Shown: positions 1-7,410 of the stretch, one piece after another
Position numbering within the stretch: position 1 is the stretch's first letter
How the letters are laid out: the number at the start of each line of letters is the position of its first letter
Source: Escherichia coli
GTDB taxonomy: Bacteria; Pseudomonadota; Gammaproteobacteria; Enterobacterales; Enterobacteriaceae
Length of the DNA: 64,000 nt
Assembly (NCBI RefSeq): GCF_044324785.1
Contig: NZ_CP172127.1
Strand: one strand, 5' to 3'
Notes under the pieces: generated by a model
Told to the model about the DNA's origin: nothing
The model's input: the letters and a program-made list of their open reading frames with translations, nothing else
The model's database searches: none
Position numbers and translations under genes: made by a program

Positions 1-906
1 CCCTTTTTGCGTGTTAAACGCATAATAATAGGTCCCGAGCTGCGGCGGCGTATAAACCTGCCCCGGAATATCCTTCAACAGCTTCTGATACATATTTTTC
101 GGGAAGGATTCGGTGATATCAATATCCCCCGCGAGGTAACGCTTAGTGGCTGCGGATTCCTGATTAATTGGCAAGAAGGTCACTTTTTGCAGTACCGTTT
201 TGGCGTTATCCCAATAATGGGTATTCGGTACCACGACCAGTTTTTCATTGACTACGCGCTCTTCAAGAACATAAGCGCCATTACCGATCAGTTTTCCGGG
301 TTTCGTCCACTCTTTAATGCTTTCTACGTTGGCTTTTTGCACCGGGAAGAAGGCAAAGTTAGCGGTTAAATTCACAAACCACGGCAACGGTTTATCAAGC
401 TGGATTTTCAAAGTATGGGCATCAACTGCGGTGACGCCAAGCTGGTCAGGCGTGGCTTTACCATCAATAATCGCCTGTGCGTTGTTGATTCCCGCCAGCG
501 CGGCAAACCATGCAAATGGCGACAATGTTTTTGGGTCCACCAGACGTTGCCAGCTGTAGACAAAATCTTGCGCCGTTACCGGTGTGCCATCCGCCCATTT
601 TGCGTTATCGCGCAAGGTAAATGTCCAGATACGGTTGTCATTACTTTTCCACTGAGTCGCAACGCCGGGGACAATCTCCCCTTTCTCGTTCTGATTCACC
701 AGTCCTTCAAACAGATCGCGAATGACCTGAATCTCTGGCAGGCCCACGGCTTTAGCGGGATCCAGCGACGCAGGTTCATCTTTAATGTGGCGCACCAACT
801 CCTGCTTCTCTGCCAGTACTGTGCCGCTCGGAACTTCTGCAGCATACGAAAGAGAAATGCTGCTGACCAACAGCGCACAACACGTGACTGAAACAGAGTG
901 CTTCAT
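1..906 (-). CDS. mppA: Periplasmic murein tripeptide-binding protein, N-terminal part; 3' end lies beyond the window start
   Basis: Minus-strand translation from the ATG at 904-906 gives a signal peptide followed by an OppA-family substrate-binding protein; absent from the ORF track because it runs off the window. Plus-strand ORFs 7-891 are antisense artefacts. Confidence 0.8.
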   Translation of the reverse strand, partial: MKHSVSVTCCALLVSSISLSYAAEVPSGTVLAEKQELVRHIKDEPASLDPAKAVGLPEIQVIRDLFEGLVNQNEKGEIVPGVATQWKSNDNRIWTFTLRDNAKWADGTPVTAQDFVYSWQRLVDPKTLSPFAWFAALAGINNAQAIIDGKATPDQLGVTAVDAHTLKIQLDKPLPWFVNLTANFAFFPVQKANVESIKEWTKPGKLIGNGAYVLEERVVNEKLVVVPNTHYWDNAKTVLQKVTFLPINQESAATKRYLAGDIDITESFPKNMYQKLLKDIPGQVYTPPQLGTYYYAFNTQKG

Positions 907-1242
907 AAGTTTCCCTCTAACCGACATTAAAATTGATGCGTAATTATTTGTTTCGCCTTAAAGAAATGCAAACAACTTCCATCAAAAAAGTGACAAAGGA
1001 AGCATCAAATGTTTTAAGTATCAATATATCAAATCAGATTTAGCGTAAATAATAGTCTCCAAAATGCGGTAAAGCACATAGAACTCCGAACACTACGTTC
1101 GGGCTTCGCACGTTCAAACCCGTTTTCGGTATCATAATCAGCATCTGTCGCCATTGTGCGAAGAATAAAAAATGACCAAAACGTTGAAAGGAACTGAGAA
1201 TACGTTAAGAGAAGAATTAAATTAATGTATCAGCAAGTAGTG

Positions 1243-2142
1243 CTAAACAGCACCTTTATACTTCAGCCTATCTATAAATAATGAGAATGCCGAGCCAGCA
1301 TGTCGACGGTGTGGATAGTACAGGTGATAACCGGGTAAATCTGGTGTGAATTTATCCAAAACACGTATCAGTTTTTTTTCTTTAATAGCCCGCTCAACCT
1401 GATCATAAGGTAGATACGCCAACCCATGCCCATCAATTGCAGCATCAATGATCAGGTCTATCGTATTCAGTAAAAGCTGACCTTCCATGCGAACACGAAC
1501 TTCACGTCCACCGCGTATTAATCTCCAGCGATTTGCTGTACCCGATGTGGGAAGATACAAATTAATTGCCTGATGATCTATTAATTGTGACACTGACGTT
1601 GGAGCACTTCGACGAGAAAAATAATCCGGTGAGCCAACAATAGCCATTGGTATATCTGGCCCGATTCGAATGGCGATCATATCTTTATCCATCTCCCCAC
1701 CCAGACGGACGCCTGCATCAAAACGTTCAGAAACGACATCGGTCAAACCATAATCAATGGTAAGCTGGATATCAATTTCAGGATGCGATTTCAGGAATGT
1801 GCGCATAGCTGGTAACAATATCGTTTTTGCTGCATGTTCTACAGTAGTAATACGTATTGTCCCGGATGGGCGGTTCTGCAGATCGCTCAGGGATGTCAGG
1901 GCAGAATCTATGTCATGCAACATAGGGCCAAGAACAGACAAAAGATGCTCGCCCGCTTCAGTGGGTACAACGCTGCGCGTGGTTCGCGTCAGAAGCCGCA
2001 ATCCTAATCGTTCTTCTATACGGCGCACTATCTGGCTTAAAGCTGACTGCGCCATGCTCAGGCGGGCTGCTGCGCGAGTGAAGCTACGCTCCTCTGCAAC
2101 GACGACAAACGCCATCAGATCAGCGATTTCTTCACGCTTCAT
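1243..2142 (-). CDS. pgrR: LysR-family transcriptional regulator (PgrR/YcjZ)
   Basis: 299 aa; N-terminal helix-turn-helix (SFTRAAARLSMAQSALSQIVRRIEERLG) typical of LysR regulators; divergent from the ycjY operon. Confidence 0.85.
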   Translation of the reverse strand: MKREEIADLMAFVVVAEERSFTRAAARLSMAQSALSQIVRRIEERLGLRLLTRTTRSVVPTEAGEHLLSVLGPMLHDIDSALTSLSDLQNRPSGTIRITTVEHAAKTILLPAMRTFLKSHPEIDIQLTIDYGLTDVVSERFDAGVRLGGEMDKDMIAIRIGPDIPMAIVGSPDYFSRRSAPTSVSQLIDHQAINLYLPTSGTANRWRLIRGGREVRVRMEGQLLLNTIDLIIDAAIDGHGLAYLPYDQVERAIKEKKLIRVLDKFTPDLPGYHLYYPHRRHAGSAFSLFIDRLKYKGAV

Positions 2143-2163
2143 TCAGTATCTCCATACAATCTA

Positions 2164-2210
2164 TTAATCATTTAAATGATAGGTCTAATCATGATTTTGG
2201 GTCTAATCAA
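2164..2210. promoter_or_regulatory. Cluster of palindromes and direct repeats in the pgrR/ycjY divergent intergenic region; candidate LysR-type operator
   Basis: Perfect palindrome ATCATTTAAATGAT (2167-2180), palindrome AATCATGATT (2187-2196), and direct repeat GGTCTAATCA at 2182-2191 and 2200-2209. Confidence 0.4.
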
Positions 2211-2267
2211 CTTAATGATCAATATCTATAGTGATATCACCAACCGTCAAAACGAACCGACAACTCC

Positions 2268-3200
2268 ATGAGGAACGGAATGATGAATAATAAAGTCAGC
2301 TTCACTAACAGCAATAATCCAACCATCTCTTTGTCTGCAGTGATCTATTTCCCTCCAAAATTTGATGAAACCCGTCAGTATCCGGCAATTGTGGTATCTC
2401 ACCCAGGTGGGGGCGTTAAAGAGCAAACGGCCGGAACCTATGCCGAAAAACTGGCGGAAAAGGGATTTGTCACTATTGCTTATGACGCATCTTATCAAGG
2501 TGAAAGCGGCGGCGAGCCGCGTCAGTTAGAAAACCCATACATTCGTACTGAAGACGTCAGTGCCGTGATTGATTACCTGACAACGCTTTCTTATGTCGAC
2601 AATACCCGAATTGGTGCGATGGGAATTTGTGCCGGTGCAGGATATACAGCCAATGCTGCAATTCAGGATCGCCGCATCAAGGCCATCGGTACTGTTAGTG
2701 CGGTCAATATTGGTTCGATGTTCCGTAATGGTTGGGAAAACAATGTGAAATCTATTGATGCCCTACCATACGTTGACGCGGGTTCAAACGCCCGAACCAG
2801 CGATATTAGCAGCGGAGAATACGCCACTATGCCACTGGCACCAATGAAGGAGTCCGATGCGCCGAACGAAGAACTGCGTCAGGCCTGGGAGTATTACCAC
2901 ACCCCTCGCGCGCAGTATCCAACAGCACCGGGTTACGCTACTTTGCGCAGCCTTAACCAGATTATTACCTATGATGCTTACCATATGGCGGAAGTGTACC
3001 TGACTCAGCCGATACAGATTGTGGCGGGCAGCCAGGCAGGGAGCAAATGGATGAGTGACGACCTGTACGATCGAGCATCAAGCCAGGATAAACGCTATCA
3101 CATTGTTGAAGGCGCAAACCATATGGATCTTTATGACGGCAAAGCCTATGTGGCTGAAGCAATTTCAGTATTAGCTCCGTTCTTTGAGGAAACTCTGTAA
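2268..3200 (+). CDS. ycjY: Alpha/beta-fold hydrolase with Cys in the nucleophile elbow (GICAGAG), YcjY-like
   Basis: 310 aa; G-x-C-x-G nucleophile elbow; first gene of the operon divergent from pgrR. Confidence 0.75.
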   Translation: MRNGMMNNKVSFTNSNNPTISLSAVIYFPPKFDETRQYPAIVVSHPGGGVKEQTAGTYAEKLAEKGFVTIAYDASYQGESGGEPRQLENPYIRTEDVSAVIDYLTTLSYVDNTRIGAMGICAGAGYTANAAIQDRRIKAIGTVSAVNIGSMFRNGWENNVKSIDALPYVDAGSNARTSDISSGEYATMPLAPMKESDAPNEELRQAWEYYHTPRAQYPTAPGYATLRSLNQIITYDAYHMAEVYLTQPIQIVAGSQAGSKWMSDDLYDRASSQDKRYHIVEGANHMDLYDGKAYVAEAISVLAPFFEETL

Positions 3201-4132
3201 TGAAACATATTCAAATCCGCAATAGTGATATGGCCTGGCATATTGCTGCCAATATTCAGTTTCCACCAAATTTTGATGAGTCAAAACAGTATCCGGCGAT
3301 TATCAGCGTCCATCCTTTTGGCAGTTGTAAGGAGCAGACGTCTGGCAATATCTATGGCAAGGCATTGGCTGAAAAAGGCTATGTCGTTCTCGCTTATGAC
3401 GCCAGTTTCCAGGGAGAATCTGGTGGGGAGCCTCGTTGGATAGAAGATCCGACACAGCGCGTTGAGGATATTAGCCGTGTTATCGATTATGCAGTAACTC
3501 TGCCATATGTTGATGCTGAACGCATTGGCGTGCTGGGTGTGTGTGGGGGGGGTGGCTATGCCATTAATGCCGCGCTGACAGAAAAACGAATTAAAGCTGT
3601 AGTGAGTATTACGGGTGTTAATATCGGGCGTCTTTTTCGAGAAGGTTTCAGCAATTACGATCCGATTGGCGCATTGAATGCAATGGCGTCGCAACGAACC
3701 AAAGAGGCTCGTGGTGGAGAATTACAGATCAACGAATTACTTCCCGCCAGCCTGGATGCAGCAAAAGCCCATGGACTGACCGAACGCGATGTTTATGAAG
3801 CAACTGACTACTATAAAACACCACGCGGGCAACAACCGGGAGGTGCGACAAAAATGTTGTTCTCACATGCACAGAAAACGCTGGCCTGGGATGCCTTCGC
3901 ATTTACTGAAGTGTTACTGACTCAGCCGGTGATGGTAGTAGTTGGTGAAAAAGTCGGTGCCTTCGGTGCTTATCGTGATGGACTGGAAGTCTATGGCCGG
4001 GCGATGGTTTCGCAGGATCGTCAGTTAGTTTCGTTACCCGATTTCTCACATTATGAACTGTATGACAAACCGGAAGCAGTTCAGGAGGCGCTGGAAAAAG
4101 TTATTCCTTTTTTCAACACCCATCTGGGATAA
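3200..4132 (+). CDS. Tandem paralog of ycjY: alpha/beta hydrolase with Cys nucleophile (GVCGGGG)
   Basis: 310 aa, roughly 45% identical to the upstream gene by eye; stop/start overlap TAATG at 3198-3202 suggests translational coupling. Likely the intact form of the locus I recall as a pseudogene (ymjD) in K-12. Confidence 0.7.
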   Translation: MKHIQIRNSDMAWHIAANIQFPPNFDESKQYPAIISVHPFGSCKEQTSGNIYGKALAEKGYVVLAYDASFQGESGGEPRWIEDPTQRVEDISRVIDYAVTLPYVDAERIGVLGVCGGGGYAINAALTEKRIKAVVSITGVNIGRLFREGFSNYDPIGALNAMASQRTKEARGGELQINELLPASLDAAKAHGLTERDVYEATDYYKTPRGQQPGGATKMLFSHAQKTLAWDAFAFTEVLLTQPVMVVVGEKVGAFGAYRDGLEVYGRAMVSQDRQLVSLPDFSHYELYDKPEAVQEALEKVIPFFNTHLG

Positions 4133-4137
4133 GTTTC

Positions 4138-4788
4138 ATGAGAAATATTATGAAAAAAGTACTCATTCTTGGTGCTGGCGGTCAGATAGCCCGCCATGTG
4201 ATTAATCAACTGGCAGATAAACAAACCATTAAACAAACTTTATTTGCTCGTCAGCCAGCAAAAATACACAAACCCTATCCAACTAATAGCCAGATTATTA
4301 TGGGGGATGTACTGAATCATGCAGCACTGAAGCAGGCCATGCAGGGACAGGATGTTGTGTATGCCAACCTTACGGGGGAAGATTTAGATATTCAGGCAAA
4401 TTCAGTGATCGCTGCGATGAAAGCCTGTGATGTTAAACGTCTGATCTTTGTTCTTTCCCTCGGTATTTATGATGAAGTTCCAGGAAAATTTGGCGAATGG
4501 AATAATGCAGTTATTGGTGAACCCCTAAAACCATTCCGCAGGGCTGCGGATGCAATTGAGGCTTCTGGACTGGAATATACAATTCTTCGCCCTGCCTGGC
4601 TGACTGATGAAGATATTATTGATTATGAGCTTACCTCACGCAATGAACCATTCAAAGGTACGATCGTATCACGTAAGAGTGTCGCCGCATTAATTACAGA
4701 TATCATCGATAAACCTGAGAAACACATTGGTGAGAATATAGGCATCAATCAACCCGGGACTGATGGCGATAAACCCTTCTTCATGTAA
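4138..4788 (+). CDS. NAD(P)-binding Rossmann protein (NmrA/atypical-SDR-like)
   Basis: 216 aa; N-terminal VLILGAGGQIARH dinucleotide-binding motif. Probably the intact counterpart of the K-12 pseudogene ymjC. Confidence 0.65.
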   Translation: MRNIMKKVLILGAGGQIARHVINQLADKQTIKQTLFARQPAKIHKPYPTNSQIIMGDVLNHAALKQAMQGQDVVYANLTGEDLDIQANSVIAAMKACDVKRLIFVLSLGIYDEVPGKFGEWNNAVIGEPLKPFRRAADAIEASGLEYTILRPAWLTDEDIIDYELTSRNEPFKGTIVSRKSVAALITDIIDKPEKHIGENIGINQPGTDGDKPFFM

Positions 4789-5078
4789 ATCAATTATATA
4801 GCTACCATCGTACTGTACTATGTGCAGTACGATTTATTAAACTTATTAAGGTGAACTGATCAATCAGATGCGATTAACATGTGTAGAACCAGTAAGAATA
4901 AAATACGCCATGTATATAACATTACGACAATTCTAATATCTGCACATCAATGAAAATGCAAACAACTTCTGGCAAAAAAGTGATACAAGATCGATGACAT
5001 AGCGTTGAAGAAAAGGATTTGATAATCCGCAAAATTTGCACAACACTGCCTGTAATACTTCCTGAACCAGAGACGATC

Positions 5079-5807
5079 ATGACCGTAACCCGCCCACGCG
5101 CCGAACGCGGCGCATTTCCGCCCGGAACAGAACATTACGGACGTTCATTATTGGGCGCGCCGTTAATCTGGTTTCCTGCCCCTGCAGCCAGCCGCGAAAG
5201 TGGTTTGATTCTGGCTGGCACTCACGGTGATGAAAACTCTTCGGTCGTCACGCTCTCCTGTGCTCTGCGGACGTTGACACCTTCTTTGCGCCGTCATCAT
5301 GTGGTGCTGTGTGTAAATCCTGACGGCTGCCAGTTGGGGTTACGGGCCAATGCTAATGGTGTGGATTTAAACAGAAACTTTCCGGCGGCGAACTGGAAGG
5401 AAGGTGAAACCGTTTATCGCTGGAACAGCGCCGCTGAAGAACGTGATGTCGTTTTACTGACAGGTGACAAACCTGGCTCCGAACCTGAAACCCAGGCGCT
5501 GTGCCAGCTTATACACCGCATTCAACCTGCCTGGGTGGTCTCATTCCACGATCCACTGGCCTGTATTGAAGATCCCAGACACAGCGAATTAGGCGAATGG
5601 CTAGCCCAGGCGTTTGAATTGCCTCTGGTAACCAGCGTCGGTTATGAAACACCTGGCTCTTTCGGTAGTTGGTGTGCGGATCTCAACCTGCATTGCATAA
5701 CCGCAGAGTTTCCGCCCATCTCCTCCGACGAAGCCAGCGAAAAATATCTCTTTGCGATGGCAAACTTGCTGCGCTGGCATCCTAAAGATGCAATTCGCCC
5801 GTTGTGA
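5079..5807 (+). CDS. mpaA: Murein peptide amidase A (gamma-D-Glu-Dap amidase)
   Basis: 242 aa from the internal ATG at 5079 (MTVTRPRAERG...); the ORF-track start at 5019 is an upstream in-frame extension. Confidence 0.85.
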   Translation: MTVTRPRAERGAFPPGTEHYGRSLLGAPLIWFPAPAASRESGLILAGTHGDENSSVVTLSCALRTLTPSLRRHHVVLCVNPDGCQLGLRANANGVDLNRNFPAANWKEGETVYRWNSAAEERDVVLLTGDKPGSEPETQALCQLIHRIQPAWVVSFHDPLACIEDPRHSELGEWLAQAFELPLVTSVGYETPGSFGSWCADLNLHCITAEFPPISSDEASEKYLFAMANLLRWHPKDAIRPL

Positions 5808-7372: not shown

Positions 7373-7376
7373 GTTA

Positions 7377-7410
7377 ATATGCCTGATGGTGTTGCACCAT
7401 CAGGCATATT
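7377..7410. terminator. Bidirectional stem-loop between the convergent tpx and tyrR genes
   Basis: 15-bp inverted repeat ATATGCCTGATGGTG / CACCATCAGGCATAT. Confidence 0.7.

Follow-up and report, generated by a model that had tools for sequence, protein, structure and literature searches.

The 37-nt motif shared by the upstream regions of mppA and mpaA in this Escherichia coli sequence (the window, a stretch of 64 kb) is best explained as a direct duplication that flanks an inserted gene cassette, its second copy being an orphaned half-promoter of mppA that is at most accessory for mpaA. We assign this explanation as a whole a probability of about 0.65. As a feature the repeat is of an ordinary kind, and its evolutionary explanation is tidy.

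A direct repeat upstream of mppA and mpaA

Both copies lie on the plus strand, copy 1 at 964-1000 and copy 2 at 4954-4990. A repeat search of the window aligned them over 37 nt with 31 identical positions (84%), including a core with 27 matches in 30 positions. This core, AAATGCAAACAACTTC-N3-CAAAAAAGTGA, occurred at exactly two places in the window, 964-993 and 4954-4983, and never in 100 dinucleotide-preserving shuffles with three mismatches tolerated. The second copy of a conserved motif, originally predicted in the mpaA upstream region, is thus real, with zero occurrences expected by chance. Its location had been given correctly, but both left ends had been drawn about 9-15 bp too long, as positions 949-963 and 4945-4953 do not match each other and the similarity begins at 964 and 4954. 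Weak similarity runs past copy 1 for about ten further bases, to about 1010, suggesting that the duplication was once slightly longer, possibly about 47 bp.

Copy 1 stands 59-95 bp 5' of the mppA start codon. Copy 2 lies in the gap between the SDR gene (described at first as an NAD-binding gene), which ends at 4788, and mpaA, which starts at 5079; the 290 bp stated for this gap were correct. Since mppA is on the minus strand and mpaA on the plus strand, the copies are opposite in orientation relative to their own genes, which argues against a common promoter or mRNA element. A structured RNA was rejected on the same grounds and because no Rfam covariance model matched at either copy, the sole weak match being RAGATH-10 (E = 0.23) inside pgrR.

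The first 8 kb of the window correspond to the mppA-pgrR-ycjY-mpaA-ycjG-tpx-tyrR region of E. coli, where identity is 99.7% with strain N3 and 95-99% with almost every other complete E. coli genome. Between the convergent genes tpx and tyrR, a perfect 16-bp inverted repeat with a 3-nt loop (7376-7410) is probably a bidirectional terminator. By BLAST, a search that degenerate sites would escape, the 37-mer had 10654 hits across 5418 E. coli genomes (median two per genome), all of them at the mppA-mpaA locus as far as visible and with no third locus. Genomes that bear the cassette have exactly two copies, and cassette-less genomes have one.

A probable cassette insertion in the ancestral mppA-mpaA spacer

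The comparison set comprised 80 Enterobacteriaceae loci, one genome per species, collected with MpaA as query and with neighbour genes placed by tblastn. In about 75 of the 80 species genomes mppA (minus strand) and mpaA (plus strand) were adjacent and divergent, separated by a spacer of 139-320 bp (mode 183-186) that contained a single motif copy. This arrangement was displayed by E. albertii, E. whittamii, three other Escherichia lineages, Citrobacter, Enterobacter, Klebsiella, Kluyvera, Leclercia and others. Among the 80, pgrR-ycjY stood between the two genes only in E. coli and Escherichia sp. E1V33.

Both flanks of the cassette are colinear with the empty, single-copy site of these relatives. 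Window positions 906-1000 correspond to positions 1-95 of the single-copy Escherichia spacer, and 4954-5078 to positions 59-183. With the 37-bp overlap counted once, the flanks add up to 95 + 88 = 183 bp, which is how long the spacer is in species such as E. albertii and E. whittamii. The window therefore contains an ancestral spacer split by an insertion of about 3.95 kb, with spacer positions 59-95 now present on both sides. Copy 1 is still joined to the mppA -10 hexamer and start codon. Meanwhile copy 2, which consists of the conserved blocks B2 (AAATGCAAAC) and B3 (AAAAGTGATA), runs colinearly into the mpaA promoter region. The two copies are not sites maintained independently of each other. 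They are paralogous, derived from one duplication flanking the insertion of the pgrR-ycjY cassette, so that their similarity by itself is no sign of co-regulation.

The inserted cassette spans 1001-4953 and is missing from the spacer in about 75 of the 80 species genomes. It contains only pgrR (1243-2142, minus strand), the alpha/beta hydrolase gene ycjY (2280-3200, plus), a second hydrolase gene (3200-4132, plus), the SDR oxidoreductase gene (4150-4788, plus) and a queH fragment. Its GC content is below that of the flanks. No transposase, integrase, other mobility gene or terminal inverted repeats were found within 1001-4953. We infer that this cassette entered a divergent mppA/mpaA control region of about 183 bp, and that its insertion yielded the direct duplication of about 37 bp (possibly about 47 bp at first), of which copy 2 would be the right-hand member.

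Several further features of the cassette and its surroundings were recorded. The queH fragment, annotated by PGAP as a partial epoxyqueuosine reductase pseudogene, occupies part of the noncoding left end of the cassette (1071-1145; 1090-1164 in locus L086) and hints that the cassette was derived from a locus with pgrR beside queH. The tandem hydrolase genes (2280-4132) are paralogues with about 42% protein identity, and the DNA repeat families D1, D2 and D4 recur within them about 911-917 bp apart. A different insert of 3.1-3.4 kb occupies the mppA-mpaA spacer of Salmonella enterica subsp. arizonae (L023, 3847-7000) and diarizonae (L024, 3561-7000). Between two lipoprotein-like ORFs, this insert has a gene for a cytolethal distending toxin B subunit (NCBIfam NF011787, E = 1e-113), and no motif duplication accompanies it. 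The mppA-mpaA spacer thus seems to be a recurrent insertion site.

The mppA side of the locus is itself variable. The N-terminal 300 residues of MppA (window 3-905) are 69-89% identical among Escherichia lineages (L002-L010), compared with 96-99% for the neighbouring MpaA, and in E1V33 the cassette is found beside a whittamii-like mppA flank. Together these observations suggest allelic exchange or rapid evolution at mppA. Import of copy 1 with a foreign mppA allele was considered and is not established, given this pairing of cassette and flank in E1V33.

Exchange between the copies

As a substrate for homologous recombination, such a direct repeat would be expected to permit either precise loss of the cassette or conversion of one copy by the other. 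Both outcomes are represented among E. coli genomes: the copies recombine, and this is visible in the precise loss or absence of the cassette and in homogenisation of the repeats. A single-copy spacer, with the cassette missing, was found in 173 of 5426 complete E. coli genomes. One of these, GF4-3, has an mppA flank of the E. coli type and CAT, the triplet of copy 1, joined to the right side of copy 2. Strain 2014C-3075 has the same mppA flank as GF4-3 but CGG as its triplet, and EC42405 has a different mppA flank that resembles the outgroup locus L002. In O145 strain RM9872 the cassette is present and both copies carry CAT, which indicates gene conversion; the second hydrolase gene is frameshifted in this strain. 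Variant-specific searches detected CAT with the copy-2 right side in 99 genomes and the B1 side with CGG in 147. As these counts together exceed 173, some of the genomes carry the cassette. The triplet TGG of copy 2 in the window (4970-4972) was absent from all 5426 complete E. coli genomes, which have CGG or CAT at this place; it is either private to this strain or an error in the sequence.

Two rigid promoter modules

An alignment of 76 single-copy spacers defined five conserved blocks. From mppA to mpaA these are B1 (GTAATTATTTGTTTC), which contains the mppA -10; B2 (GAAATGCAAA and a conserved CTT a few bases further), with the mppA -35; B3 (AAArTTGAyA, its consensus also given as AAArTTGAyAT), the upstream part of the mppA promoter; B4 (GAAACTATTTGATTA), with the mpaA -35; and B5 (TTTTGCACAACACTGCC, window 5035-5051), with the mpaA -10. 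Spacing was 24 bp between B1 and B2 in 75 of 75 species, 20-21 bp between B2 and B3 in 61 species, and 23 bp between B4 and B5 in 68 of 68, while the distance from B3 to B4 varied from 32 to 234 bp. The fixed spacing within B1-B3 and within B4-B5 and the variable distance between B3 and B4 identify two rigid, independent modules, M1 for mppA and M2 for mpaA, joined by a flexible linker. The repeated motif is B2 plus B3 and is structurally a member of the mppA module M1. Several species retain B2 and B3 without B4 and B5; the reverse is seen in Salmonella arizonae (L023), which has lost B2-B3 5' of mpaA and retained B4-B5.

On the minus strand, the mppA promoter comprises the -10 hexamer AATAAT (943-948, inside B1) and the -35 hexamer TTGCAT (966-971, inside copy 1 and B2), with a 17-bp spacer, within the 16-18 bp expected between sigma-70 hexamers. 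A promoter scan scored TTTGCA/18/AATAAT, with 9 of 12 consensus matches. One dataset, obtained by SMRT-Cappable-seq, places a transcription start of mppA at K-12 position 1393195, that is, window position 938 on the minus strand, 5 nt 3' of AATAAT (PMC6131387). Copy 1 covers -26 to -62 relative to this start. The duplicated piece accordingly comprises the -35 hexamer (TTGCAT, minus strand) and the upstream element from -45 to -60 of the sigma-70 promoter of mppA. Still linked to its -10, copy 1 continues to serve as the working mppA promoter.

The same technique detected a second mppA start at K-12 position 1393117 (window 1016, minus strand), in cassette-derived DNA. Its transcript reads through copy 1, which thus becomes part of a longer leader, and mppA would have gained an extra upstream promoter with the insertion. 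By eye, a candidate promoter for this start is TTTACG (1050-1045), a 16-bp spacer and TATATT (1028-1023).

On the mpaA side, module M2 (5019-5047, plus strand) comprises the -35 hexamer TTGATA (5019-5024, in B4), a 17-bp spacer and the -10 hexamer AACACT (5042-5047, in B5). The original prediction of a promoter belonging to mpaA itself, with a start between 4990 and 5078, is borne out by two published K-12 starts. By SMRT-Cappable-seq, the only mpaA start reported is at K-12 position 1390623, window position 5054 on the plus strand, the seventh nucleotide after AACACT and 25 nt 5' of the ATG (PMC6131387). The other, at 4996 on the plus strand (NC_000913.2 position 1388705), is listed in Table S1 of Kim 2012 with a third-column value of 20, apparently a read count, and its listed -50 to +1 sequence contains the whole motif (PMC3415461). 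The start at 5054 falls inside an older, TTG-initiated ORF of 262 codons and so supports the current ATG at 5079, the first codon of the murein tripeptide amidase CDS (5079-5807, plus strand) downstream of copy 2.

The main mpaA start is thus driven by a separate conserved module, TTGATA-17-AACACT, and copy 2, at -64 to -100 relative to 5054, is not the source of the mpaA promoter. M2 is weak by consensus (8 of 12 matches) and was not flagged in the promoter scan, leaving room for an upstream activator or helper. Block B5 is nearly invariant across Enterobacteriaceae, far beyond the requirements of a -10 element, and could include an operator overlapping the mpaA -10. It also contains CACAACAC, which resembles the CA-rich GcvB target motif. 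B5 is present in mRNA only if the transcript starts upstream, for example at 4996 or by read-through.

Possible read-through into mpaA

Between the cassette operon and copy 2, just 3' of the SDR stop codon, lies a terminator-like hairpin (4807-4833, plus strand) with a 12-bp stem, a 3-nt loop and a U-rich tail. Its predicted folding energy is -17.2 kcal/mol (z = -2.9), and a simple terminator scan did not flag it. The 160-nt spacer with this hairpin was found in 2940 of 5426 E. coli genomes, about half. Relative to the window, K-12 (L082) has two deletions, 3255-4143 and 4289-4948, which remove the second hydrolase gene, most of the SDR gene and the hairpin; the second stops 5 bp before copy 2. 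As it removes the hairpin, the ycjY-ymjD-ymjC-mpaA unit of K-12 may depend on that deletion. The K-12 "genes" ymjD and ymjC are remnants, the ymjC ORF crossing copy 2 to a stop at about window position 4995, and E1V33 (L004) has the same right-hand deletion junction as K-12.

What copy 2 may do for mpaA

On our preferred explanation, copy 2 would be a half-promoter without its -10, stranded 64-100 bp 5' of the main mpaA start. At most it would assist, for example through weak initiation at 4996 or by offering an upstream contact, and its role for mpaA is probably accessory only; we infer that this role is weak or absent. Conservation of the copy itself can be read in two ways. K-12 and E1V33 are the most divergent pair of lineages with the cassette, and all 37 positions of copy 2 agree between them, while the adjacent linker and the 5' leader differ by about 10-20%. 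The unchanged copy hints at constraint, though conversion of copy 2 by copy 1 could have had the same effect.

As a counterpoint to the relic view, copy 2 may be an active second promoter. Under this alternative, which we regard as possible but tentative, copy 2 is a working second sigma-70 promoter (P2) for mpaA, with an extended -10-like element, TGaTACAAG (4981-4989, plus strand), the start at 4996 and an 83-nt leader that includes B4 and B5. In the ancestral spacer, P2 and the mppA promoter would have stood back to back and overlapped; with such an overlap, both genes would stay expressed only if an insertion duplicated B2-B3. The start reported by Kim 2012, whose -50 to +1 region is the motif (PMC3415461), favours P2 and would make copy 2 a core promoter at -42 to -6; the TGAyAT of B3 is conserved in the form TG-n-TAT. 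However, SMRT-Cappable-seq gives 5054 alone for mpaA (PMC6131387), so that the 4996 start appears in one of two datasets, and processing of ycjY read-through RNA in K-12 could have generated its 5' end. The element itself shows the TG extension and, at position 2, the A, but is missing the T at position 6, a conserved final T that is absent in E. coli, Citrobacter and Enterobacter. It has no -35 match, the consensus scan did not report it, and S. arizonae lives without the B2-B3 region.

A less probable alternative, which we consider unlikely, is that B2 plus B3 form the operator of a transcription factor that co-regulates mppA and mpaA, ancestrally through one common site and later through one site per gene, both under selection. 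The two blocks are among the most conserved spacer columns across Enterobacteriaceae, B3 (AAArTTGAyAT) has a more specific sequence than generic UP elements do, and every difference between copy 1 and copy 2 falls in a poorly conserved column. The stability of copy 2 between K-12 and E1V33 amid diverging noncoding DNA, the weak consensus of both promoters and the common substrate of MppA and MpaA, the murein tripeptide, would also fit shared control. On the other hand, B2 conservation is already accounted for by its role as the mppA -35, and substitutions after the duplication lie nearly all in copy 1, which leaves little information on copy 2. An operator for both genes would also be expected at a fixed position relative to each; the motif is fixed to the mppA promoter but lies 32-234 bp from the mpaA module, and S. 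arizonae keeps B4-B5 without B2-B3. Nor does a third motif copy exist in E. coli genomes as searched by BLAST.

The known regulators gave no better fit. We scanned the B2-B3 window of 75 orthologous spacers and shuffled versions of them with consensus sequences from the literature, not curated matrices. Mismatch distributions for CRP, FNR, TyrR, PurR, Fis and sigma-54 were near those of the shuffled controls, none rising above them. By eye, sigma-54 and sigma-E were rejected, on the spacing of the sigma-54 GG-GC elements or an unfit -10. A CRP ChIP site reported in ETEC for ycjZ/mppA, CGTGAACCGGGTCACA (PMC4287617), was not found near the motif region with up to three mismatches.

The LysR-type palindrome ATCATTTAAATGAT, of the T-N11-A form, occurred in the region, at up to three mismatches, only at 2167-2180 and 2206-2219, and at neither motif copy. 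The divergent pgrR/ycjY spacer (2142-2280) holds a perfect ATCATTTAAATGAT at 2167-2180 and two direct GGTCTAATCA repeats at about 2182-2210, both of which are candidate sequences for the PgrR operator seen by SELEX. The reported PgrR SELEX target is the ycjY/pgrR spacer, and the mppA and mpaA upstream regions are not among the targets (PMC5934670). A shared regulator site in the repeat is hypothetical, and no tested factor consensus fits it.

More doubtful still is the extended form of this idea, that B2 plus B3 would be an Enterobacteriaceae-wide operator of a new regulator of murein-peptide uptake and breakdown, with dual control of mppA and mpaA kept in E. coli only through duplication of the operator. 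If true, an old mppA/mpaA control circuit would be layered beneath the newer PgrR circuit. A dispersed repetitive or mobile element (REP, ERIC or MITE-like) or chance similarity, as a short, noncoding, AT-rich direct repeat might suggest, is hardly credible, given the empty shuffles, the copy number that follows the cassette, and the finding of no Rfam family and no terminal inverted repeats at copies that are each colinear with the ancestral spacer.

Implications for the locus

These findings revise the reading of a locus concerned with peptidoglycan peptides, in which the PgrR cassette is a lineage-specific addition to an older control region shared by the divergent genes mppA and mpaA. Most enteric bacteria, and about 3% of E. 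coli genomes, retain that older region unbroken, and the promoters of mppA and mpaA can now be assigned to conserved sequence blocks. The presence or absence of the cassette among E. coli strains is a natural polymorphism for probing cassette function. More generally, similarity between upstream regions can stem from common descent and not from shared regulation.

Comparison with known systems

Two known binding sites bear some likeness to the motif. The IHF consensus is WATCAANNNNTTR, and the minus strand of copy 2 reads TATCACTTTTTTG, one mismatch away; the enrichment is modest, however, with at most one mismatch in 30 of 75 species against 9 of 75 shuffled sequences. The CytR octamer is GTTGCATT, from which TTTGCATT in B2 differs by one mismatch, but this likeness is a consequence of the anchor used, is nowhere perfect, and concerns a lone octamer without flanking CRP sites.

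The PgrR (YcjZ) regulon of peptidoglycan-peptide catabolism involves the same locus and the same genes (Shimada et al. 2013, cited in PMC5493296 and PMC5934670). The gene mpaA is listed in a PgrR-repressed unit of K-12, ycjY-ymjD-ymjC-mpaA (PMC5934670). The regulon differs from the motif in its site of action, which by SELEX is the ycjY/pgrR spacer and not the motif sites (PMC5934670).

The motif also resembles a sigma-70 -35 hexamer with a UP-like element. On the mppA-sense strand, copy 1 presents TTGCAT 17 bp 5' of AATAAT with a published start where expected, and the T-tract CACTTTTTTG falls at about -47 to -53 of mppA, the position of a UP element. Unlike a generic A/T-rich UP element, B3 is kept as TATCAAyTTT in other genera and is thus more specific; and unlike a sigma-70 promoter, copy 2 has no matching -10 and faces away from mpaA.

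The arrangement as a whole is reminiscent of the direct repeats that flank inserted islets. Transposase-made target duplications measure 2-14 bp, whereas the duplication here is at least 37 bp; neither an integrase or transposase gene nor a tRNA site or terminal inverted repeat is present. In both cases, same-orientation copies of host sequence surround foreign genes that are missing in relatives, and recombination between the copies restores the empty site.
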